DNA of 64,000 bases, from the NCBI GenBank assembly GCA_002269645.1, contig NIVC01000434.1, positions 310,001-374,000 of the forward strand, given 5' to 3'. The position numbers and the translations under genes are program-made. This DNA comes from Macrostomum lignano (lineage: Eukaryota). This document shows, piece by piece, positions 3,198 through 64,000 of this stretch. The notes under the pieces are model-generated. The model did no database searches and was not told the origin of the DNA. It saw only the letters and a program-made list of their open reading frames with translations. Within the stretch, counting starts at the first letter, position 1. Each line of letters starts with the position of its first letter.

Positions 3198-14250
<11,053 letters not shown>

Positions 14251-44201: not shown

Positions 44202-47200
44202 TATATACTAAAAATGAGTTGTCTGTGGGTATGCGATAGATTTCAGAAAAATTGGCTCAACCGATTTTCTTCAAACTTGCACCATTCGATCAGAAATTTT
44301 CCTGGGACGGTACATGCATCTTGGCTAAGAAATTGCTCAATGTTAAAGGGATTAAATATTCGAAAAACATGCTTTTTTGCAAAGGTCACGCAAAATTTTC
44401 GACTTGAGATGCATTGTAAGAATGCTAGAGAAAAAACTGACTGACTGAATTCCGATTGTGATAAAGATTGCATCACAACAAGTAGAAAACAGTGCCGAAG
44501 AAATGCACACACGACATGATTTAGATTGCGTAACCATATTGCTAACTTGAAGTGAGACTGATACTGGCTGACTGAGAAATTGATTATGTCATAACTTTTT
44601 ACTCCAATTGACCTGCTGTAAGAATTGAATTATAAGGGCCACAATTCATGTTCTCCAATTGAAAAGAGATAGCCCTGATGCGAACAGACTGGAATGCTAA
44701 TATAGCGACCTGGGTTCGAATCTTAGTAGTGCAAAAAGATTTTTTTATTAAAACACCTTAAAAACACAACAAAACTGCTAAACATCAAAGAAGCGCAATG
44801 TCAAACATAGAAGAGCCAACATATCGAACATAAAAGAGTTACCATGTCAAACATAGAAGAGCCACCATGTCAAACATAAAAGACCCACCATGTCAAACAT
44901 AAAAGAGCCACCATTTCGAACATTAAAGAGCCACCATTTCGAACATTAACGAGCCACCATTTTGAAAATTAAAGAGCCACCATGTCAAACAATTAGGAGC
45001 CACCATGTCAAACATTAAAGAGCCACCATGTCGAACATAAAAGAGCCACCATGTCGAACATAAAAGAGCCACCATGTCAAACATATATGTGACTTTATGT
45101 CAAACATTAAAGAGCCACCATGTCGAACGTTAAAGTGCCACCATGTGTAACATAAAAGAGCTACATCATGAAGAACATTAAAGAGCCACCATGTTAAACA
45201 TAAATCTGGCATGATGTCAAACATTAAAGTGCCACCATATTGAACATTAAAGAGCCACCATGTCTAACAGTAAAGAGCCACCATGTCGAACATTAAAGGG
45301 CCACCATGTAGAACATTAAAGAGCCACCATGTCGATCATTAAAGAGCCACCATGTCAAACATTAAATAACCACCATGTCGAACATTAAAGAACCACCATG
45401 TCGAACATTAAAGAGCCACCATGTCAAAAATAGAAGAGCCACCATGTCAAACATAGAAGAGCCACCATTTCTAACATTAAAGAGCCACCATGTCGAACAT
45501 TAAAGAGCCACCATGTCTAACATTAAAGAGCCACCATGTCTAACATTAAAGAGCCACCACGTCGAACATTAAAGTGCCACCATGTCAAACGTAAAAGAGT
45601 CACTATGTCGAACATTAAAGAGCTAGCATGTCAAACATTAAAGAGCCACCATGTGGAACATTAAAGAGCCACCATTTCGAACATGAAAGAGCCACCATTT
45701 CGAATATTAAAGAGCCACCATGAAGAAAATTAAAGAATCACCATATCGAACATAAAAGAGCCAGAATGTAGAATATTAAAGAGCCACTATGTCGAACATT
45801 AAAAAGCCACCGTGTCAAACACTAAAGAGCCACTATTTCGAACATTAAATAGCCACCATGTCAAACATAAAAGAGCCACCATGTCGAACATTAAAGAGCC
45901 ACCATGTAGAATATTAAAGAGCCACCATGTCAAACTTTAAAGAGCCACTATGTCAAACGTAAAAGTGACTTTATGTCAAACATATCAGTGACTTTATGTC
46001 AAACATATAGGTGTTTTTATGTCAAACATTAAAAAACCACCATTTCGAACATTAAAGAGCCACCATTTCGAACATTAAAGAGCCACCATGTCAAACATTT
46101 AGGAGCCACCATGTCAAACATAAAAGAGCAACCATGTCGAACATTAAAGAGCCACCATGTCGAACATTAAAGAGCCAGCATGTCAAACATTAAAGAGCAA
46201 CCATGACAAACATTAAAGAGCCACCATGTCAAACATTAAAGAGCCACCATGTCAAAAATTAAAGAGCCACTACGTCAAACATTAAAGAGCCACCATGTCG
46301 AACATTAAAGAGCCACTATGTCAAACATTAAAGAGCCATCATGTCAAACATTAAAGAGCCACCACGTCAAACATTAAAGAGCCACTATGTCAAACATTAA
46401 AGAGCCATCATGTCAAACATTAAAGAGCCACCACGTCAAACATTAAAGAGCCACCATGTCGAACATAAAAGAGCCACCATGTGAAACATACACGTGACTC
46501 AATCTCAAACAGTAAAGAGCCACTATGTCAAACATAAAAGAACTACCATGTCAGACATAAAAGAGCCACCATGTCAAATTTACAAAAGCCATCATGTCAA
46601 ACATAAAACAGCCACATATACGTGACTTAATGTCAAACCTTAAGGAGCCACCATGTCAAACATTAAAGAGCCACCATGTCGAACATTAAAGAGCCACCAT
46701 GTAAAATACAAAAGAGCTACCATGTAAAATATAAAAGAGCCATCATGTCAAACGTGTACGTGACTCAATGTCAAACATTAAAGAGCCACCATGTCGAACA
46801 TTAAAGAGCCACCATGTCAAACATAAAAGAGTCACCATGCCAAACATAAAAGAGCCACCATTTTAAACATATACGTGACTCCATGTCAAACATTAAAGCG
46901 CCATCATGTCAAACGTATACGTGACTCAATGTCAAACATTAAAGAGCCAAATGTCAAACAACTTAGCCACCATGTCAAACAAAGAAGAGACACCATGTCA
47001 AACATAAAAGAGCCACCATGGCGAACATTAAAGAGCCACCATGTCAAACATAGAAGAGACACCATGTCAAACATAAAGAGCCACCATGTAAAATATAAAA
47101 GAGCTACCATGTAAAATATAAAAGGGCCATCATGTCAAACATTTACGTGACTCAATGTCAAACATTAAAGAGCCACCATGTCGAACATTAAAGAGCCACC

Positions 47201-48167
47201 ATGTTAAACATAAAAGAGCCACCATGCCAAACATAAAAGAGCCACCATGTCAAACATATACGTGACTCCATGTCAAACATTAAAGCGCCATCATGTCAAA
47301 CATATATGTGACTGCATGTCAAACATAAAAGAGCCACCATGTCAAACAACTAAGCCACCATGTCAAACAAAGAAGAGACACCATGTCAAACATAGAAGAG
47401 CCATCATGTCAAACATAACAGAGACAACATTTCAAACGTAAAAGGGCCGCCATGGTAAACATAGAAGAGCCACTATGTCAACATTAAAGAGCCACCTTTT
47501 TAAACATAAAAGAGACACCGTTTCAAACATAAAAGAAGTTTCATGCCAAACAAAATTTAGCCACTATAAATCTAAGGAAATTGTTGCACTAGCTACTTTC
47601 TCTGGTGGATGCTTGCTATTTAAGGATGGATACTTGCTATCAAGGGGATGCTTGCTATCGGAAGGATGCTTGCTACTGGGGTAACTTGCTATTGGGAGAT
47701 GCTTGCTCTTGGGGGGTGGAGGGTACTTGCTATCTAAGAGGGGGCTGCTAGATATCTATAAGGTCTCTTTGTATCCAGGTTAATGCTTGCCATCCGGGGT
47801 TGCTTGCGGTCTGGGGGATGCTTGCTATCTGGAGGATGCTTGCTATCAGGGGTTGCTTGCAGTCTGGGGGATGCTTACTATCTGGGGTCTGGGGGATGCT
47901 TGCTATCTGGGGGATGCTTGCTATCTGGGGTTGCTTGCTATCGGGGAGATGCTTGCTATCTGGGGGATGCTTGCAGTCTGGAGGATTTCGCTATTTGGGG
48001 ATCGATGCTTGAATGCTTTCTGAGGATGCTTGCTGTCTTGGGATGTTTTGTTTTTAGAGGGAATGTCTGTTGTTTTTTATGAAGGCTTTATTTTGCTGTC
48101 TATTTGTTATTTGTAAAGAACAAGGATTCTATCCAGATGTCCCCCATCGGGGGGCGAAGATTGCTAG
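44202..48167 (+). mobile_element. Helitron-like family A, copy A3 (23-bp minisatellite 44785-47530)
   Basis: TATATACTAAAAATG head; 3' hairpin CCCCCATCGGGGGG + CGAAGATTGCTAG|T. Confidence 0.78.
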
Positions 48168-48691
48168 TATTTAACTATTTTTTGAGTAATCACTCTGAAG
48201 TCTGAGACTGTGGGTTCTGGCACGGCGTGTGCACTACAAGTAAGATGTCCAAAAGAAACATAATAAAAAAATAAATACTAAGAGTCTAACAAAGTAAATT
48301 ATACTTTTAGTATATAAGACGTATGCTTTAGAAAGAAACCTAATAAAGCTTAAAATTAAAGTCCTTTTAACAATAAGTGACAAGATAAATAAAACAGTAA
48401 TTATGCATATCGTTTTCTCTCTGACCGGTCATTTCGCAGAAATGACTTTTCGCCGAAATGACCATAACTCCTCCTACCGACCGACACTTGACAACTGGAC
48501 TGGACACCTATTATTACTTACTTCTGGCGAGGGCCACAGTCACAGACGCTGCGATTGCCTGCAAGGCTCCTATCACAGACATCCAAGGCAAACAGTTTTT
48601 TTCTCCAAAACTTTTCTTACAATCAATTTTGATTAATTTCAAAATCAAAAGTCCTAACCCTAGCCTAGTTAAGTTAAAATAAGTCCAGACC

Positions 48692-50099: not shown

Positions 50100-50980
50100 T
50101 GTTACAGGGGTCTTGGGGGAGGGAAATTATCCTATTGCTGACACCAAATCTGTTGTGGGGGAATTTATGGGATTCTTGGGATTTCTGAAAGATATACTAG
50201 TTTTATTTCTAATAGGAGTAAGCCAATGGTTGCTCCTAGTGGCGTGAGTGTCCGAGCGGCAAGACACTGTCTATATATTAAAACTTCCAAGGGAGGGCTG
50301 CGCGGCAGATCAGAGTTGCCTGGGGAATTGTCGCATAATGGGATTTTCTAATGGCTAATAGGAAATGCTGACATGGGGAGGATATGCCTTAATAAGGAAT
50401 TAGATAAAGGCAGGGCGCCTAGGCAGATAGTGCGTCTAGATGGGGAGTTGGCAGATTGCCAGGTTACTCAGAGATCTGGGGAAGGGAGGCCACACGCCTG
50501 TCCAACTGATAAAGGAAAGGGGGGTTTGAAGTGTTACTCAGGAAGAGACTGTACGTTCTCTAGGGGGGGGGAGGGAGAAAGGTTGTACGCTTATAGCTGA
50601 ACAAGACCTCTCAGGGAAGGGGAAAGGCGGGCGCCTTCAAAGGAATAACTCATAGACGGATCTATTTTTAGAACAACTGTTCAATTTGGCCGAAGACAAA
50701 GCCTGTTACTAGAGGCGGCCACAGAAGTCTAGGCTCTCTACAGATTTACTTGCTCATATTTATAGTAACTTTAGCAAAAATGGCGGACAATTCATAACAA
50801 AACTTTAAAAATAGGAGGCACTATAAGCATATTTGAGACAGAAAAACGATAGTTAGGCTACTTTTTTTTAATGATCAAATAAATAGAAATATTTTGCTAA
50901 TAAAGGGATATATAATTTTCATAACGCATTTAACGAGTAATATACATAATATAAGCAATTATTACTATATCACTATATCA
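50100..50980 (-). repeat. 3' LTR
   Basis: Direct repeat of 58340-59215; roughly two dozen differences counted by eye; preceded on the minus strand by purine-rich AGGAAAG. Confidence 0.95.
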
Positions 50981-51295
50981 ACTGGCTTTCCTGAACGAAT
51001 TTTGCGAATATATTTATTAGTGAGACAAAATTATTAAAAACGCATTTACATGGATTACAGTAGTATGAAAAGAATAGTTGAATTTAATGCAGAGAATAAG
51101 TGGCACAAAATTTATCAGGTGAAGAATGCATGCTAAAAGAAAAAATGCAAAATTACAAAAGTTTACTACAAAATGATTCATGACTATAACATTTATTAGG
51201 CACAAAGATGTTAAAAAAATGACGTAATGGTTAGTTATTATTTCGCAAAAATAAATGTTCAAAATTGTCATGCAATATTATTGCTTATACTTCAG

Positions 51296-52198
51296 TTAAT
51301 TCCATCGGAACTCGCAAGGTAGACCATCCGGGTCGGGCCAGCCGCAGCTTTGGCCGATCCAGAGTACTTTAGTGGCCACGTTCTCGCAATTGTACTGACG
51401 ATTGCCACGGGACAAGTCTTGTAAAGCGTAGACGGTGGCGCGGCGCCAGGCAGCTATAGCTTGCGCCTGCTGCATGCGCAGCAGGTCTTCGAGGGCTGCC
51501 GAGACTTCCACCCTTTGGGGAAACATCCTTCCATCAAGGCGGAAGCAACCAACCTTCACTAGATAATGCTTCAGGATGACGATTTGCTGCCGGAATTGGG
51601 CACGGCGGAACTCAGGGAGACCTGATACGATTTGGTTGAAATCTCTGCCTAACTCTTGGAGTGGGAGCCTTCGTGGCTCTGCATTAGCCATCAGGGGCGG
51701 AACCTGTACGCGTAGATCGATTGGCATTGGGTTGGAGAGGCTGGGCCTCGCTTGGTGGGGCGGCCTGATGCCATACTAGGGCGGTGGCGTAACTAAAGGC
51801 TTCGCCAGAGATCTTGAACGCTCTCTGGGCTCTTGCTTGACAGTCTGATTTTCGCGTACTTGGCGCATGATGGGCGGTGCCTCACTCGGGGGTAGGACTT
51901 GGGCGGCGCGAGAGCCTGAAGGTTGACGGCGGACGATGTCGGCCGAAGGCTCCACAGGGGCGGCAGCTTGTTGCTCTAGTAGACGCTTGCGTTCTTGGGG
52001 CGAACTGCTGACTGGTTTAGCTGGCGGGCGAGTCACGACTGACGCAATCTTCTTAGGCTTAGCTCCAGGCTTATTGGGACGAGTTGGCTGACGCTCAGGA
52101 GGGCTGGGGTCATTCTCTTCCTCGTGATCGAACTCGCTAGCATTACTATCCGAGAGGGCAAGTTCTTCTAATCGTTGAAGCTCGTCTCCAGAGGTCAT
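51296..52198 (-). CDS. Gypsy accessory ORF3 (~300 aa, one in-frame TAG), unknown function, not env-like
   Basis: ORFs 52198-51776 and 51727-51296 are in the same frame, separated only by TAG at 51776-51778; lies between pol and the 3' LTR. Confidence 0.65.
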
Positions 52199-52514
52199 TT
52201 TAATCTTTTCGAATCAGATTAAATTGGGGAGTAAAAATCTTATAGATAGTTTGGGAAGGCTTGAGTCAAGCTAGCTGTTGAATTTGGTTGTGCAATCTCG
52301 ATTTCGAGTGTTTACTTATTGGTCCCTTTTGTTCTTGTTTTCTGGGATTCTTATTTTCGTAACCCACCTCATTTTCTGTCTTTTTTGGGGTCTAGTTTCG
52401 CTTTGGATCGATAATTTTAGGGGGTCTTTGTACATTAGCATTGTTCAATACGCGTTCTTCCTTTATCTAAAATTTGGGGTTCATTGTGCAATCGGGGACG
52501 GCGAGAGGGCTAAA

Positions 52515-55500
52515 ATTCGAGGTTACGCAACAAATTGAGGGCTTTCAATAGACGTTTCAGATGGCAGTCACATCTTTGTTTGGCTTGGGATGGGCGCCTC
52601 AGATTGTAGGGGTGGGTGTGCGCGGGCTCGGGATCTTGCGGGACAGGAGAGGGGGGTAGGGGTTGAGGGTCTTCTTCATTCAATGCTTCGTTTTCTGACT
52701 CATCGGTCTCTTCATTCTCTGTCTGAGCTTCAGACCATTCTTCAGCTATTTATCCTTCATTATTCTCTTCTCTTAGTTGGCATCGCCAATTGATTTCTTC
52801 TTCGTCAGATGACTCTTCAGATTCGATAGGGTTGGGCTGATTTAATTCTGGGATTTTCCAGCGGGGGTGGCTTTCCTTAATTGGGAGTTGTCTCTTCGGT
52901 TCAGTTGAAGTGGGGGTAGGGGCGGAAGTAGGGGCGGAAATAGGAATAGGAGCGGGGTTAGGGGCGGAAACATGAGCGGGAGCGCTCTCCTGGCTTTCCT
53001 TAGTAAAAAGTTCTGTGGTTGAATTGGGCACGGGCGTTAAATTGTCTCGGTGCACTAACATTTCTTTGCCAATTAATTTTCCATCTTCTTCCTTTTGAAC
53101 TTTAAAAACTACTTCAGAAATTTGAGCTATCACTCTAAATGCTGATCGCTTCTTTCTATGAAATTTGTGGGACTCTTCGGTGTCTAATTGGAGATTGTTA
53201 ATTAAAGCTAAACAGCCTATGGGGACTCTGGGGGGAAGTTTATTAGTTTCAGCGGCGATTTGTCTTTTCTCTGTCACTTTTTCTAATTTCCTCTTAACAA
53301 TTTTGCTAGCTTCTTCTAATCTTTCAGCATGTTTGGATATATAGGCGGGATAGTCGGCATGCTCTGCTGTACTTCGAATTTGAGTGTCTAAGGGTAGAGT
53401 AGCTTCTCTTCCAAATAGTAGAAAGTGCGGGGAAAATCCTGTTGTTGCATTTGGGCTGGTGCGAATGGCTACTAAGGCTGCGGGAATTAGTAAATCCCAA
53501 TCACCGTGATCCTTATTGATCAGGCAGGTGATGATCGATTTAACTTGCTTATTAAAGTGTTCTACTAATCCGTTAGATTGGGCATGATAGGGTGTAGTGA
53601 AGGTGTGGCGAATATTATATAATTCACAAAATGCCTTAAACTGTTTACTAGCAAAGGTTTTTCCTTTGTCCGTGTGAATCCACGTTGGCTGTCCATACTC
53701 TGCTACTATTCGTTCAAGTAGTATTTTAATGACTGTGTCTGATTTTTGATTTCTAATGGGAAAAGCAAAGGGATATCTAGTTGTGCTGTCAACAACTGTT
53801 AAAACATATTTGTGACCTCGTTTACTCTCTTTTGAGATTGGGCCAATAATGTCTATGTGCAGGTGGCTGAAAGCTTCGCCAATGGGGAACGATTGTATAG
53901 GAGCTTGCACAAAGTGGCCTTTCTTACTCTCGAGACAGGGGATGCACTCAGCAATCAATTGCTCAACTGAGGTACTCAATCCGGGTCGCCAAAATCTTTC
54001 TCTGATTCTTTGGAGTGTCTTATCCCTTCCTAGATGTCCTGCGAGGGGGCTGCAGTGTAGGTCAGTAAAGACTGCTTTGTCTAGGGATGGGGGCAAAACT
54101 ACTTTGTTCTTTCCATCTTCGGTGATTATTAATAATTCGTTATTGATTCTCATCAGTTCGAAATGTTTACTGATCTTTTCTGGCACGTCCGGTGTTTTGG
54201 GAAATTGGCTCAATTTCTGGGCTTTAGCTTCTAATAAAGCTTTAATGATGGGGTCAGCAACTTGGGCTTCTATAATCTGTTCTTTCTTCAGGGGGCTGGG
54301 AAGATAATCAGTTAATAGTTTCTCACACTTTCCTGTCTCCTTTTCTTCTTCTGCTTTTACTTCTCTACCTGAGACATTCAGCATTGTCCTAAATTCGGGA
54401 CATTCAGTCTGGGTCTCACTTTCTGTCAGGGCTTCAGGTGACTGGGACATGGGGTTGTCCTTAGTTTCAGCGGGAGCACTCTCATCTCTCAGGGGAACAG
54501 GGGTCAGCTTCTCAACTTTCTCAGGGGTTGGCTCAGTTTTCTCAGGAATTACTTCAGATACTTCAGGGGCTTCAGCTATCTCAGCTGGTCTTCTCGACAA
54601 TCCGTCGGCATTGGAATGCTTTGCGCCGCTTCTGTGTTCAATGTCGAACCTGAATTCGTTCAGACGCTCTATCCATCTACCTAGGATTCCGGTTGCTTCT
54701 GTCTGTCTCATGAGCCAAATTATCGCTTTATGATCAGTTCGGGCTAAGAATTTCTTGCCGATCAGATAAAATCTGAAATGCCTCATAGCGTCGACAAGGG
54801 CTAACAATTCTTTCCGTGTAATGGGGTATCTCTTCTCTGATTCCTTCATTGCTCTACTAAAGTAGGCTATTGGTCGCTCTATGCCATCACTCTGGATTTG
54901 GCCAAGGCATGCGCCAATCCTGTCGTCACTGGCATCTGTGTGGAGCACCATTTTCACATTTTCATCTTCGACATATTTGGGGTAGGCTAACACTTCAGTA
55001 GACATCATTCGCTGCTTCAGGGACTCAAAGGCTTCATCATGCACTTTGTTCCATTTAGATTGGAAATTCTGGACTCCTTTTCGAGTCAATTGGAATAGGG
55101 GGTGAGCCACTTCGGCATAATTTTTCACAAATTGGCAATAATAATTGCATAGGCCAAGAAAACTGCGGAGTTCTTTTATGTCTTTGGGATGGGGCCAAGT
55201 TTGGATTGCTTCAATCTTCGTCTTGTCTGTTTGAATGCCTTGGCGGCCAATCACGTGTCCTAGATATTTTAACTCGTGATGGAAAAGGTTGCACTTTTTT
55301 TGGTCTCAACTTCAGACCTGCGGCAATTAGTCGCTTAAATACTTCTCTTAAGTGCTCTAAATGGTCGGCAAAAGTTTAGGAGTAGGCTATTATGTCGTCT
55401 ATATAAGACATGGCGAATTTATGTTGGATTCCTAATAGGACTAAATTCATTAGGCGTTAGAAGGTTCCGGGGGCATTGGAAAGTCCTTGGGCCATTACTT

Positions 55501-55915
55501 GGTATTCAAATTGGTCTCTAGTTAGGGTGGAGAATGCGGTTCGATGTTTATCTTCCTCTTTGATGGGGACTTGCCAGTATCCTGAGTTTAAATCAAGGCT
55601 GCTAAAGTATTGGCTACCAGTTAGGTGGGAGAAGGTCTCTTGAATATTAGGGAGGGGGTAGGGGTAGTAATTAACTCTTGAGTTGAGCACTCGGAAATTG
55701 CTCACGATTCTAATAGAACCATCTTTCTTGGGGACAATTACTAGGGGAGTGGAGTAGGTTGAATAGCAGGGTCTAATTAGGTTTTTGGCTAACATATCGT
55801 CTAATTGGGCGTCAACTTGCTTTTGCAAGTGTGGGGGGATGCGTCTGGCTGGGATTCTAACGGGGGTGGGGTCTTTGATGGAGATTTCGTGGGTTACTAA
55901 GTGTATCAGGCCCAT
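52515..55915 (-). pseudogene. Gypsy pol: RT (YIDD), RNase H, integrase (HHCC, D,D-35-E); frameshift/stops
   Basis: SSLDLNSGYWQV, MAQGLSNAPGTF, YIDD near 55400, HTDASD, ELLAL, GHLG...C..C, HIDIIGP, HTDKG, SNGLVE. Confidence 0.95.
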
Positions 55916-55921
55916 GTCTAA

Positions 55922-57088
55922 TTAATTCTGGGAAAAAGCTTCACGGTTTTCTTTTATTAAGTCGATGACTGCTTTTCGCTGTTCATCTGACAGTTCAGGG
56001 CCAAGACTCACTTCATTAATCCATGAATCTTCAGTACATTGAGTCTGGTTGACTCTCGCAGGGGGTTGGGGGTTGGGAGTTGGGGTTTGCCAATAGGTTA
56101 AGTCTTTAGCTTTCATGGGTCTGGCTAGGCCAATTAGGGAAGTTTTGGTTAGGTTCACATCTACTGGGTGACGGTTAATAATTTCAACAATTCCTTTGCC
56201 TTCTTTCATGGTTACTAAGGTCGGAACCATTTCTAATGAGAAATCACAGGTTCGAATAGTATCGCCAATGGCTTCAATGGTCATGGGAGTGCCATAATTC
56301 GATTCACAATTTTTGGCTAATTTCACGGGTATTCGGAGAGCACTATTAGCTGGGATGATTGTTCTTTCTTGAGTATAGACTCGGCAAACTTTCACGGGTA
56401 GGTGGGTATACTGCATGGGTATACAGGTACCTTCATTAAGCACTAGCATTCCTTTGGCTAGCTGAATGCTTTCGCATTGGGATAGGAAAAATTCCATACC
56501 TAGAATATTGTCACAGTCATGTCGGCATAGGAGAAAATCAACTTCGATTTGGATATCGCCAAACTTCACTTGGGCGGATACTTCTCCTTCTAATTGGACT
56601 GGGGTACCGTCAAATGTACTAATGCTTTTGCTAGTGTCTCGGATTTGATCAGTACGGAATAGCTTAGACCAGGTTGAGCGGCTCAGGAAATTATTTCTGG
56701 CGCCTGTGTCTAGCAAGAAATCAATCGATTCTTTCTGGATATCGCCAACTATTACAGCTTCATAGCCTTCTAGCTTGGTCAGGTCGATTCGGGATGGGGA
56801 ATTGGGTTTTGGCTTTCGTCGCTTCCTTGAGCGGGTTTCAGCACTGAATAAAGCATTATTGGTTTTAATCGCATGGGATACATGGGGTGCAAGCGCAGTG
56901 GGTACACGGGGTGCGGATGCATGATGTACATGAGCTTTGGTCGCATTGGTTACATGAGAGGCAGTCGCATTAGGGGAATTGTATACATGGGGGTCATGGG
57001 GGGCATTTGGCATGGCATCGTCGGCATCATCAAAGGCAAGAAGTGAAAAATTATTGGGGGAGATAGATATCGCATTATTCACAGGCAT
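55922..57088 (-). pseudogene. Gypsy aspartic protease region
   Basis: FLLDTGARNNFLS...ILGMEF retropepsin motifs. Confidence 0.9.
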
Positions 57089-57243
57089 TGGCTGTACATG
57101 GGAGGTTTTGCGGGGATAGCGGAAACCGTACTAGGGAGGTTGCCGGTATTTTGGTTGGGGAGCATTTTCGAATGATGGGGAGACTAGAGAGTAAGCGGAA
57201 TTTTGGCCTGAGGGGCGTGGCCTCTTAACTCGACCCTGGCTTC

Positions 57244-58257
57244 TCAGTTTCCCAACTTCTGGGAGTCACGGGGGTTACGGAACTTCAGCGGCTCATATCT
57301 TGGGTTAGGGGGCTGACGCTCATTTCTTCTTGGGGGTTCACGTCTTAGCGGTTGGTTCATCAGCTGGGGCCTGTACTGCTGCTGAGGTTGCAGTCTGTAC
57401 TGCTGCTGGGGTGGCTGTCTGTACTGCTGCTGGGGAGGCTGTCTGTACAGCTGAGGGTTTGGCTGTCTGTACTGCTGAGGAGGTGGCTGCCTATACTGTT
57501 GCTGGGGGAACACCTGAGATGGCGGGGTGCATTGCGCTGTTTCAGCCAGTTGCTTCTGCAGGTTCTGAGTAAGCCTTTCTTGGTGGTCAATCTTTGTCTG
57601 CTGGTCAATGATCAACTGGTCAGTTCTGCCTTTATACTCCTCTTTCTCATCTTTAGTCACTCGGATTCCACCTTTGTGGGACATCTGGTAAGCAGCTTCA
57701 ATTCTGCGCAGCATTCTACGGGCGGCTTGGAGACTAGCAGGTTGGGCAAAAATTAGCTTTTCACGGGTGTCGGGAGGGGTTCTCACACCTTTGATGAACT
57801 GTTCAACCAGTTCTTCTTCTCTCTGCTCAGCATCCATGTTCAGGAATGCGCGGGAGGCTAATTCAATCAGGGCATCGGCAAAGCTGTCAGTGGATTCGTT
57901 TCTGCCTTGGCAGCGATTCCTAAACTCTTCGCAAAATTCGGCGGAGCTACCTACTTTTCCAAATCTTTCGATTAGTCTTTCTTTGAACTCTTCATAGGGG
58001 AGATTAGCTGGGAGGTTGAGGCGTTGAACTGCTGCAAACGCAGTACTCAGGTCTAAATTGGTAAGCAGTTCCTGCTTCCGGTTTTCTTCTTCTATGCCTT
58101 CATTTTCACATCTCTGGTCAAATGCGGTAAGCCAGATTCTAATATCTTGGCTGGGAAGGTACTTCTGAATCTTCACATGTCTGAGGGGACCTAATTCTAG
58201 TCAATTACGGAGCTCTTCAGCTAAGAGTCCTAGGGCTTCATTGATTCCTGCGGCCAT
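57244..58257 (-). pseudogene. Gypsy gag (ATG at 58257, one internal TGA), Q/P-rich C-terminus
   Basis: DIRIWLTAFD...LIERFG...FRNRCQGRNESTDSFADALIELASRAF...LVEQFIKG retrotransposon-gag pattern. Confidence 0.88.
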
Positions 58258-58323
58258 TGTACTTCAGGGATGGAAAATTATACTGGGGTTGAGTGCGCGT
58301 TTCACTAGATTCCAATCCTTTAC

Positions 58324-58336
58324 CGCTGCCACCAAA
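58324..58336 (-). promoter_or_regulatory. Primer binding site, probably tRNA-Leu
   Basis: TGGTGGCAGCGG a few bases after the 5' LTR, complementary to the ...CCGCTGCCACCA 3' end typical of eukaryotic tRNA-Leu(AAG/UAG). Confidence 0.75.
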
Positions 58337-58339
58337 ATC

Positions 58340-59215
58340 TATTACAGGGGTCTTGGGGGAGGGAAATTATCCTATTGCTGACACCAAATCTGTTGTGGGG
58401 GAATTTATGGGAGTCTTGGGATTTCTGAAAAATATACTAGTTTTATTTCTAATAGGAGTAAGCCAATGGTTGCTCCTGGTGGCGTGAGTGTCCAAGCGGC
58501 AAGACACTGTCTATATATTAAAACTGTCCGAGGGAGGGCTGCGCGGCAGATCAGAGTTGCCTGGGGAATTGTCGCACAATGGGATTTTCTAATGGCTAAT
58601 AGGAAATGCTGACATGGGGAGGATATGCCTTAATAAGGAATTAGATAAGGGCAGGGCGCCTAGGCAGACAGTGCATCTGGATGGGGAGTTGGCAGATCGC
58701 CAGGTTACTCAGAGATCTGGGGAAGGGAGGCCACACGCCTGTCCAACTGATAAAGGAAAGGGGGTTTGAAGTGTTACTCAGGAAGAGACTGTACGTTCTC
58801 TGGGGGGGGGAGGGAGAAAGGTTGTACGCTTATAGCTGAACAAGACCTCTCGGGGAAGGGGAAAGGCGGGCGCCTTCAAAGGAATAACTCATAGACGGAT
58901 CTATTTTTAGAACAACTGTTCAATTTGGCTGAAGACAAAGCCTGTTACTAGAGGCAGCCACAGAAGTCTGGGCTCTCTACAGATTTATTTGCTCATATTT
59001 ATAGTAACTTTAGCAAAAATGGCGGACAATTCATAACAAAACTTTAAAAATAGGAGGCACTATAAGCATATTTGAGACAGAAAAACGATAGTTAGGCTAC
59101 TTTTAATGATCAAATAAACAGAAATATTTTGCTAATAAAGGGATATATAATTTTCATAACGCATTTAACGAGTAATATATATAATAGAAGCAATTATTAC
59201 TATATCACTATATCA
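58340..59215 (-). repeat. 5' LTR
   Basis: Direct repeat of 50100-50980; TATATA-like (~58515) and AATAAA (~58445) on the minus strand. Confidence 0.95.
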
Positions 59216-63011: not shown

Positions 63012-63440
63012 TTATATACTAAAAATGAGTTGTCTGTGGGTATGCGATAGATTTCAGAAAAATTGGCTCAACCGATTTTCTTCAAACTTGCACCATTCGA
63101 TCAGAAATTTTCCTGGGACGGTACATGCATCTTGGCTAAGAAATTGCTCAATGTTAAAGGGATTAAATATTCGAAAAACATGCTTTTTTGCAAAGGTCAA
63201 GCAGCTCTTTCGACCTGAAATGCATTGTAAGAATGCCAGAGAAAAAACTGACTGACTGAATTCCGATTGTGATAAAGATTGCATCACAACAAGTTGAAAA
63301 CAGTGCTGAAGAAATGCACACAAGACTTGATTTAAATTGCGTAACCATATTGCTAACTTAAATTGAGACTGATACTGGCTGACTGAGAAATTGATTATGT
63401 CATAACTTTTTGCTCCAATTGACTTGCTGTAAGAATTGAA
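63012..63440 (+). mobile_element. Helitron-like family A head (A4), truncated
   Basis: Near-identical to 44202-44630. Confidence 0.75.
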
Positions 63441-64000
63441 CTAGCAATCTTCGCCCCCCGATGGGGGACATCTGGATAGAATCCTTGTTCTTCACAAATA
63501 ACAAATAGACAGCAAAATAAAGCCTTCATAAAAAACAACAGACATTCCCTCTAAAAACAAAACATCCCAAGACAGCAAGCATCATCAGACAGCATTCAAG
63601 CATCGATCCCCAAATAGCAAGCATCCCCCAGACTGCAAGCAACCCCAGATAGCAAGCATCCCCCAGACTGCAAGCAACCCCTGATAGCAAGCATCCCCCA
63701 GATAGCAAGCTCCCCCCAAATAGCAAGCATCCCCCAGACCGCAAGCAACCCCAGATAGCAAGCATTAACCTGGATACAAAGAGACCTTATAGATATCTAG
63801 CAACCCCCTCTTAGATAGCAAGTACCCTCCACCCACCAAGAGCAAGCATCCCCCAGACCGCAAGCAACCCCAAATAGCAAGCATTAACCTGGATACAAAG
63901 AGACCTTATAGATATCTAGCAACCCCTCTTAGATAGCAAGTACCCTCCACCCCCCAAGAGTAAGCATCTCCCAATAGCAAGCATCCCCTTGATAGCAAGT
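63441..64000 (-). mobile_element. Helitron-like family A 3' end (A5), inverted, runs off the window
   Basis: Reverse complement of 47700-48167, including the hairpin and CTAG. Confidence 0.8.

Follow-up and report, generated by a model that had tools for sequence, protein, structure and literature searches.

A conserved non-env third open reading frame in a Ty3/Gypsy clade of Macrostomum lignano: a candidate activator of its own long terminal repeat

The window analysed here is the whole of a 64,000-nucleotide stretch of Macrostomum lignano DNA, to which all coordinates refer. It contains a Gypsy element with a third open reading frame (ORF3) after pol, and the question raised is whether this frame is a gene and, if so, what it contributes to the element. 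Complex retroviruses are distinguished by encoding regulatory proteins of their own. Within the literature covered, CERV of the C. elegans element Cer1 is the one characterised case in an animal LTR retrotransposon (PMC10309623). ORF3 is a real, old and selected accessory gene of a large Gypsy clade, with no Pfam family.

Structure of the host element

ORF3 lies within a decayed 9.1 kb copy of an LTR retrotransposon on the minus strand. Pfam domains follow the order protease, RT, RNase H and integrase, preceded by gag, and the element is therefore a member of Ty3/Gypsy; an LTR pair, primer-binding site (PBS), polypurine tract (PPT) and target-site duplication are all present, as expected of that group. 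The features are as follows.

58340..59215, minus strand: 5' LTR, starting TG, 97.0% identical to the 3' LTR (19 mismatches, 4 gap openings)
59025-59016, minus strand: YY1-like motif in the 5' LTR
59004-58996, minus strand: TATA in the 5' LTR
58386-58377, minus strand: relic PBS-like unit in the 5' LTR
58323..58334, minus strand: PBS, tRNA-Leu type
57244..58257, minus strand: gag, broken by an in-frame stop at 58203-58201; weak Retrotrans_gag match below the cut-off
52510..57130, minus strand: pol (protease, RT, RNase H, integrase and a low-complexity tail), broken
50981..50992, minus strand: PPT
50100..50980, minus strand: 3' LTR, ending CA, with TATA at 50765-50757 and AATAAA near 50205

Damage to pol consists of stops at 55924, 55459 and 52752 and a frame change near 55300-55380. 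The target-site duplication is of 4 bp on both flanks, and the positions of TATA and AATAAA give a long R region of roughly 500 nt. The PBS is presumably of tRNA-Leu type, and the factor names attached to U3 motifs, including the YY1-like motif of the 5' LTR, are likewise assumptions. From its RT motifs the clade of the window element is presumed to resemble the Gmr1/Osvaldo clade. The LTR families of M. lignano have been classified, with 40 families in Gmr1/Osvaldo, and the available part of that paper describes no third ORF (PMC12801592); no motif match by which to place the clade was found in its supplement.

The U5 ends of both LTRs (50146-50100 and 58386-58340) carry arrays of approximately 2-5 units, which also occur at the 3' LTR ends of loci L038, L039, L042, L060, L109, L115 and L123. 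In each unit a relic PBS of tRNA-Leu type precedes a motif resembling the end of U5, and the units vary by subfamily. The arrays may be a record of serial mis-priming or U5 capture.

ORF3 in the window copy

An earlier note, made from the sequence alone, had described a sense frame of about 300 codons after pol with a clear ATG. This frame and the peptide stretches quoted for it were found on the minus strand at 52198-51296, starting approximately 310 nt past the pol stop. The 'single TAG' of that note is an internal in-frame stop (51778-51776); the frame ends at 51296.

51296..52198, minus strand: ORF3, 300 codons, a pseudogene here; ATG at 52198, final stop at 51296
52150..52198, minus strand: acidic amphipathic helix at the N-terminus, a candidate for an activation domain or an export signal
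51900..52100, minus strand: middle motifs, namely P.R..T.P, a basic K/R-P patch and an R..LL..QA..PV helix (residues 68-80)
51776..51778, minus strand: in-frame TAG breaking ORF3 ahead of the folded C-domain
51299..51660, minus strand: C-terminal five-helix domain, net basic (mean pLDDT 85.3, pTM 0.78)

The ORF3 of this copy is a pseudogene, a point that the earlier note had left unclear. A DNA search located seven places: the window itself, three at 96-97% identity and three at 73-74%. The TAG is absent from all three close sister copies, one of which is open throughout (301 codons) while two are broken nearer the start. In the closest sister family, at 73-74% DNA identity (copies L068, L069 and L070), the 7 kb upstream of ORF3 contain neither gag nor pol in any of the three copies; downstream, a PPT and LTR follow in L068 and L070.

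Distribution and homology

Related ORF3s occupy well over 100 places in the genome. The C-terminal half of ORF3 gave at least 126 matches at 28-100% identity (150 of 207 candidates scored), and a distant member, P0004, gave at least 143 (116 of 2947 candidates scored, with some matches falling in two pieces). Eighty ten-kb stretches, chosen by the author among the ORF3 matches, were inspected: 52 had pol upstream on the same strand, 17 had gag only, 8 had only a downstream PPT and 3 had none of these, placing 77 of the 80 in the context of an LTR element. The conservation among sister elements on which the earlier proposal depended was found genome-wide, together with purifying selection on the C-domain (below).

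A HMMER scan of 1.84 billion representatives yielded seven hits: five M. lignano proteins, one Logan cluster at 38-46% identity to copies in the M. lignano genome and one repetitive ENA protein, regarded as spurious. A named M. lignano protein from NCBI is 100% identical to sequence of the genome under study, in agreement with that host. The Pfam family cut-off was passed by no ORF3 member examined. Word-index protein searches returned nothing, at a sensitivity low enough that P0004 was missed as well. PDB sequence matches to Crov588, PNMA2 and TINCR (E 0.008-0.6) were rejected as weak, as was a PNMA_N Pfam match in 1 of 33 domains; the folds of PNMA and TINCR are also unlike the all-helical ORF3 model. 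No DnaJ domain was found in 33 C-domains or 7 full-length proteins, in which the conserved HPD column is absent. Foldseek searches of PDB and BFVD gave no match at E 0.001 or better, the best VIA match (Gle1 CTD, Z 7.7, rmsd 5.4, 119 aligned) lay within the helical-bundle background and was set aside, and an Atlas fold search with P0004 gave no usable match; these fold-search negatives do not establish a new fold. The possibility that P0004 is a gag-ORF3 splice product was dropped, since it is contiguous in the genome. Neither a captured host gene nor a known env is indicated, as the anatomy of env is absent and the credible relatives are the Macrostomum proteins and the one Logan cluster. No account of the ORF3 protein came up in searches of the full-text literature, and an earlier mention is possible.

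Three deep groups appear on the ORF3 tree and on the RT-RNase H tree alike, which suggests that the gene is likely as old as its clade. At L040 (6559-7632) the last helix and tail of ORF3 are tandemly duplicated. Decayed matches of the group 1 type, to which the window belongs, adjoin or overlap decayed P0004-type matches on contigs C1403, C4426, C4884, C2082 and C1424, representing either nested elements or tandem ORF3s.

Predicted protein and selection

Full-length members (n = 27) range from 275 to 454 amino acids. All begin with an acidic amphipathic helix and end in a C-domain of approximately 120 residues; the part between is basic and disordered and contains three short motifs that are conserved. 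The start of L117 was probably mis-set, and the automatic start search was wrong for L043 and L052/L071. The AlphaFold2 model of the C-domain has five helices with the scores listed above; that of the full-length protein includes helices at residues 4-15 and 68-80, at an overall pTM of 0.47. These models agree with the earlier description of an acidic, then Pro-rich and basic disordered N-terminal half and a folded C-terminal half. Net charge over the first 30 residues lies between -7 and -11 in 26 of 27 members; in all 27 the middle, which is RS- and SP-rich, is at +5 to +29 and the C-domain at +1 to +9. An Asp, a Leu and two Trp residues of the C-domain are invariant in both alignments, and an R-x-D...P loop is conserved.

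The highest 19-residue Kyte-Doolittle mean ranged from 0.27 to 1.11 across all 27 members and the N-terminus is acidic, consistent with the earlier statement that a signal peptide and transmembrane helix are lacking. The cysteine-rich appearance of the window copy did not extend to its relatives: two of the four cysteines are missing from sister copies and Cys is conserved in no column of 33 rows, and a zinc-binding Cys motif was dropped. A class-1 export-signal pattern occurs in the N-terminal helix of 15 of 27 members, against 3.3 expected from shuffles, in related rows and with a degenerate pattern; in the group of the window it occurs in 8 of 9. The helix of group 3 is presumably more like an acidic activation helix.

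Close autonomous pairs gave C-domain dN of 0.09-0.13 against dS of 1.7 or saturation, and the pol-less pair L107/L109 gave 0.11 and 2.8, respectively. Unsaturated pairs between subfamilies gave dN/dS of 0.26-0.48, and one very close pair with few changes 0.73. An excess of amino-acid changes was not seen in pairwise dN/dS, and positive selection was dropped. Judged from these comparisons, ORF3 is functional, old and under purifying selection across the clade.

Region upstream of ORF3

A pyrimidine tract at 52205-52240 had been put forward as a splice acceptor for an env-style subgenomic mRNA. Acceptor-like patterns, defined as 10 or more pyrimidines among the 13 nt preceding YAG and within 200 nt of the ATG, were rarer than chance: 3 of 28 sequences had one, where shuffles predicted 8.0, and the window copy has none. 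The interval instead resembles a promoter. An alignment of eight group 1 sequences delimited the following.

52280..52509, minus strand: predicted internal promoter of ORF3, containing the next five features
52505-52494, minus strand: conserved GC-rich motif
52413-52406, minus strand: DRE-like motif
52363-52354, minus strand: motif
52320-52311, minus strand: weak TATA-like site
52296-52287, minus strand: conserved motif

The non-coding motifs between the pol stop and ORF3 are fixed in 8 of 8 group 1 rows. Using a matrix built from the LTRs, with a mark of 10 or more within 260 nt of the ATG, a strong TATA was found upstream of ORF3 in 12 of 28 sequences, against 1.1 expected. In ten of these 12 the TATA is 80-115 nt upstream of the ATG, and CCAAT or GC boxes often precede it. 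Canonical TATA boxes belong to the other two groups; no group 1 sequence, the window included, reached the mark (0 of 10). Taken together, the TATA, CCAAT and GC motifs and the scarcity of acceptors suggest that ORF3 is likely transcribed from its own internal promoter between pol and ORF3. No joint between leader and ORF3 was seen for the window element or L118 in contigs of runs guessed to be RNA, but contigs drop rare forms and this negative was given no weight. A step in depth near the predicted start of L118 coincides with a contig junction and was discounted.

The U3 regions of 28 ORF3 types carry differing host-factor-like motifs at fixed distances before TATA: group 1 has a YY1-like motif at -19, group 2 CCAAT or GC, and group 3 forkhead-like motifs at approximately -26 and -68. 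These resemble host-factor sites, and uniform private arrays are absent from the 28 types. Tandem arrays in non-coding parts are confined to a few types such as L047 and L074, being clear in approximately 2 of 28, with only short AT-rich repeats elsewhere. Heat-shock elements were absent from U3 and R in the 49 LTRs screened. With L112 omitted, each U3 shared slightly more 8- and 9-mers with its own internal promoter than with non-cognate ones (within-group P 0.016-0.024); for 6- and 7-mers P was 0.06-0.07, the words being AT-rich and the rows related.

Inheritance of ORF3 with the LTR promoter

Nine elements from other group 1 subfamilies were compared with a reference, L057. Protein identity was 96-98% in gag, 97-100% in RNase H and 94-97% in integrase, but 41-53% in the ORF3 domain; synonymous distance rose from 0.09-0.17 in RNase H to above 1.8 or saturation in ORF3. 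Ten other subfamily members are 78-98% identical in DNA to the window element from gag to the integrase core and 52-65% in ORF3 where it can be aligned, with U3 mostly unalignable. Along the DNA, identity drops from the integrase tail into ORF3 and recovers at U5 in most rows. Elements forming a star on the RT-RNase H tree, with end branches of 0.01-0.02 (0.06 for one truncated row), are deeply split on the ORF3 tree.

Among 49 elements (1176 pairs; loci without a recognisable PPT or TATA were omitted), none of the 1110 pairs with ORF3 identity below 0.7 had a proximal U3 or 5' R more than 80% identical. Where ORF3 identity exceeded 0.9, U3 was above 80% in 28 of 34 pairs and 5' R in 33 of 34. 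TATA calls were wrong for L060, L070 and L085, and the single discordant pair, L068/L070, is such a mis-call. These alignments indicate that ORF3, U3 and 5' R pass on together as one block, whereas gag-pol is exchanged freely beneath it. Such co-inheritance fits functional coupling but is no proof of it: the parts are neighbours, and adjacency alone could maintain it once they are too diverged to recombine. L041 and L042 have the same promoter and R, yet are only 79% identical in the C-domain; any specificity between ORF3 and promoter must therefore be coarse.

Elements lacking pol

Sixteen of 20 stretches around P0004-type matches had no pol. In 15 of these 16 the LTR pairs are 98.6-100% alike. 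Most of the elements span 5-6 kb, and ORF3 is open in 15, that of L106 being broken. Most keep a conserved gag derivative of 190-197 amino acids. The LTR and ORF3 region of L118 is 97-98% alike to that of autonomous L121, L120 and L116 have much of the LTR and pre-ORF3 region in common, and pol-less elements are interspersed among autonomous ones on the ORF3 tree.

The gag derivative (L118:4822-5397, L120:4067-4651 and others) is internally shortened with a C-terminal Cys/His motif and occurs in several pol-less families; no Pfam match to it passed the cut-off. It may be a protein for packaging or interference that is peculiar to these parasites. The pol-less element L122 has been invaded by another mobile element, whose ORF of 701 aa lies within 3850-5950, and a related ORF adjoins L005.

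The extra ORF of Athila is env-like, unlike that of Macrostomum. Athila otherwise offers a parallel, with recombining lineages in which non-autonomous copies keep ORFs under purifying selection (PMC2410132). Retention of ORF3 in pol-less elements is therefore not proof of a benefit in cis.

Possible functions of ORF3

Tentatively, and with a little under even confidence, ORF3 is read from these comparisons as an element-encoded nuclear activator of its own LTR, expressed from the predicted internal promoter in a layout like that of foamy-virus Tas. An activator is the best fit to the combination of a predicted LTR-independent promoter, an acidic helix, basic nuclear-type motifs, a small basic domain and the strict association of ORF3 with that half of the LTR which holds the promoter. 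The weak TATA-like sites of group 1 and the resemblance of U3 motifs to host-factor sites count against it. Host factors would fire the internal promoter independently of the LTR, and basic K/R-P patches would bring the protein into the nucleus. There the basic five-helix domain would engage the cognate U3 or 5' R RNA, either by itself or via a host factor, and the acidic helix would recruit co-activators and raise or de-silence genomic transcription. ORF3, U3 and 5' R would then form a specificity cassette, swapped onto a shared gag-pol backbone by recombination.

Foamy-virus Tas (Bel1) combines an acidic segment with a basic region, as does ORF3. Tas is driven by an internal promoter (PMC12789967), and both are accessory ORFs near the 3' LTR, the promoter of ORF3 being predicted from motifs. 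Unlike Tas, ORF3 belongs to a Ty3/Gypsy retrotransposon without env, its acidic segment is N-terminal, no member passes a Pfam cut-off and its transactivation and DNA binding are proposals. A wider interpretation is possible but held more loosely, namely that the clade independently evolved a foamy-virus-style circuit with an early activator from a new protein family and cassettes exchanged over a shared gag-pol. Dozens of activator-promoter cassettes would then exist, and pol-less parasites would, again as a possibility only, carry their own.

An adaptor similar to Rev or CERV is unlikely but credible. The basic domain would bind genomic RNA at an element within its 3' or R part, which is specific to the subfamily, and the N-terminal helix would act as a CRM1 export signal, the protein carrying or protecting genomic RNA. 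The frequency of the class-1 pattern, above all in the group of the window, favours this over an activator, and the basic RS- and SP-rich middle and long R region agree with it. The precedent is Cer1 CERV, also a lineage-restricted, divergent Gypsy-type accessory protein with candidate nuclear import and export signals (PMC10309623). However, the pattern is absent from 12 of 27 members, including 10 of 13 in group 3, any amphipathic helix inflates the match rate, and the failure to find a conserved acceptor lessens the need to rescue unspliced RNA. According to the same source, CERV has 517 aa, a Cys loop and a G-like domain and arises from a spliced mRNA sharing exons with gag, whereas ORF3 stands as a gene of its own behind pol, with a single small domain of helices and no conserved Cys. 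An unlikely role is that of a host-defence antagonist or adaptor, whose short motifs would recruit or sequester host silencing factors of the piRNA or chromatin type. It would do so across the genome or, in the manner of VANC, at its own element, and an arms race would maintain diversity. Short conserved motifs in a disordered chain and the coexistence of many deeply diverged variants are in keeping with it, as is VANC of Arabidopsis VANDAL elements, an element-encoded factor diverging with its cognate non-coding DNA (PMC5735166); the targets of ORF3 are putative. VANC, however, comes from a plant DNA transposon and targets tandem arrays, which are found here in few types such as L047 and L074, the divergence of ORF3 is old and purifying with no amino-acid excess, and a general suppressor is a shared good that need not track U3.

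Quite improbable is a role in the particle or in integration, such as that of a cofactor bound to Gag or of a chromatin tether, with a purely physical link to U3. Pol-less elements do keep ORF3 along with the gag derivative, and the C-terminal tail of integrase diverges in the same block as ORF3, but Gag identity of 96-98% where ORF3 domains are 41-53% identical is unexpected of a tight Gag partner. It is very improbable that the frame does not code at all, as a by-product, or that it was captured from the host in recent times. The broken window copy and the three stretches without an LTR-element feature accord with this, against which stand purifying selection with saturation at synonymous sites, conservation of both start and fold, and the recurrence of three deep groups on both trees. 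The non-env ORF3 with no recognised family proposed in the earlier note is supported across the clade.

Two further animal systems are close parallels. The ORF3s of bdelloid Juno and Vesta are likewise non-env genes in that position, but are recognisable enzymes (DEDDy and GDSL), whereas Macrostomum ORF3 has no Pfam match or obvious catalytic motif (PMC5408684). The env of Oikopleura Tor3b/4b is, like ORF3 as predicted, an unspliced third ORF with a promoter in or after pol; its product is a membrane glycoprotein, unlike ORF3 with no membrane segment (PMC4402516). If ORF3 is an activator, it would show how retrotransposon subfamilies keep separate identities while gag-pol stays common and how parasitic deletion derivatives persist, and would supply a set of natural activator-promoter pairs. 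M. lignano is ready for transgenesis and LTR reporters already work in it (PMC12801592), and the claim is therefore directly testable.

Other repeats in the window

RT-like fragments lie on the minus strand at 3766-5046, with an upstream ORF that enters a long tetranucleotide array; the region as a whole (3766-9693) is probably the remnant of an element of non-LTR or Penelope type. The intervals 44680-47100, 47600-48170 and 63440-64000 hold a satellite array with a 23-bp unit and an inverted repeat pair. The inverted repeats have 17-18-bp subunits and flank the LTR element approximately 15 kb apart.
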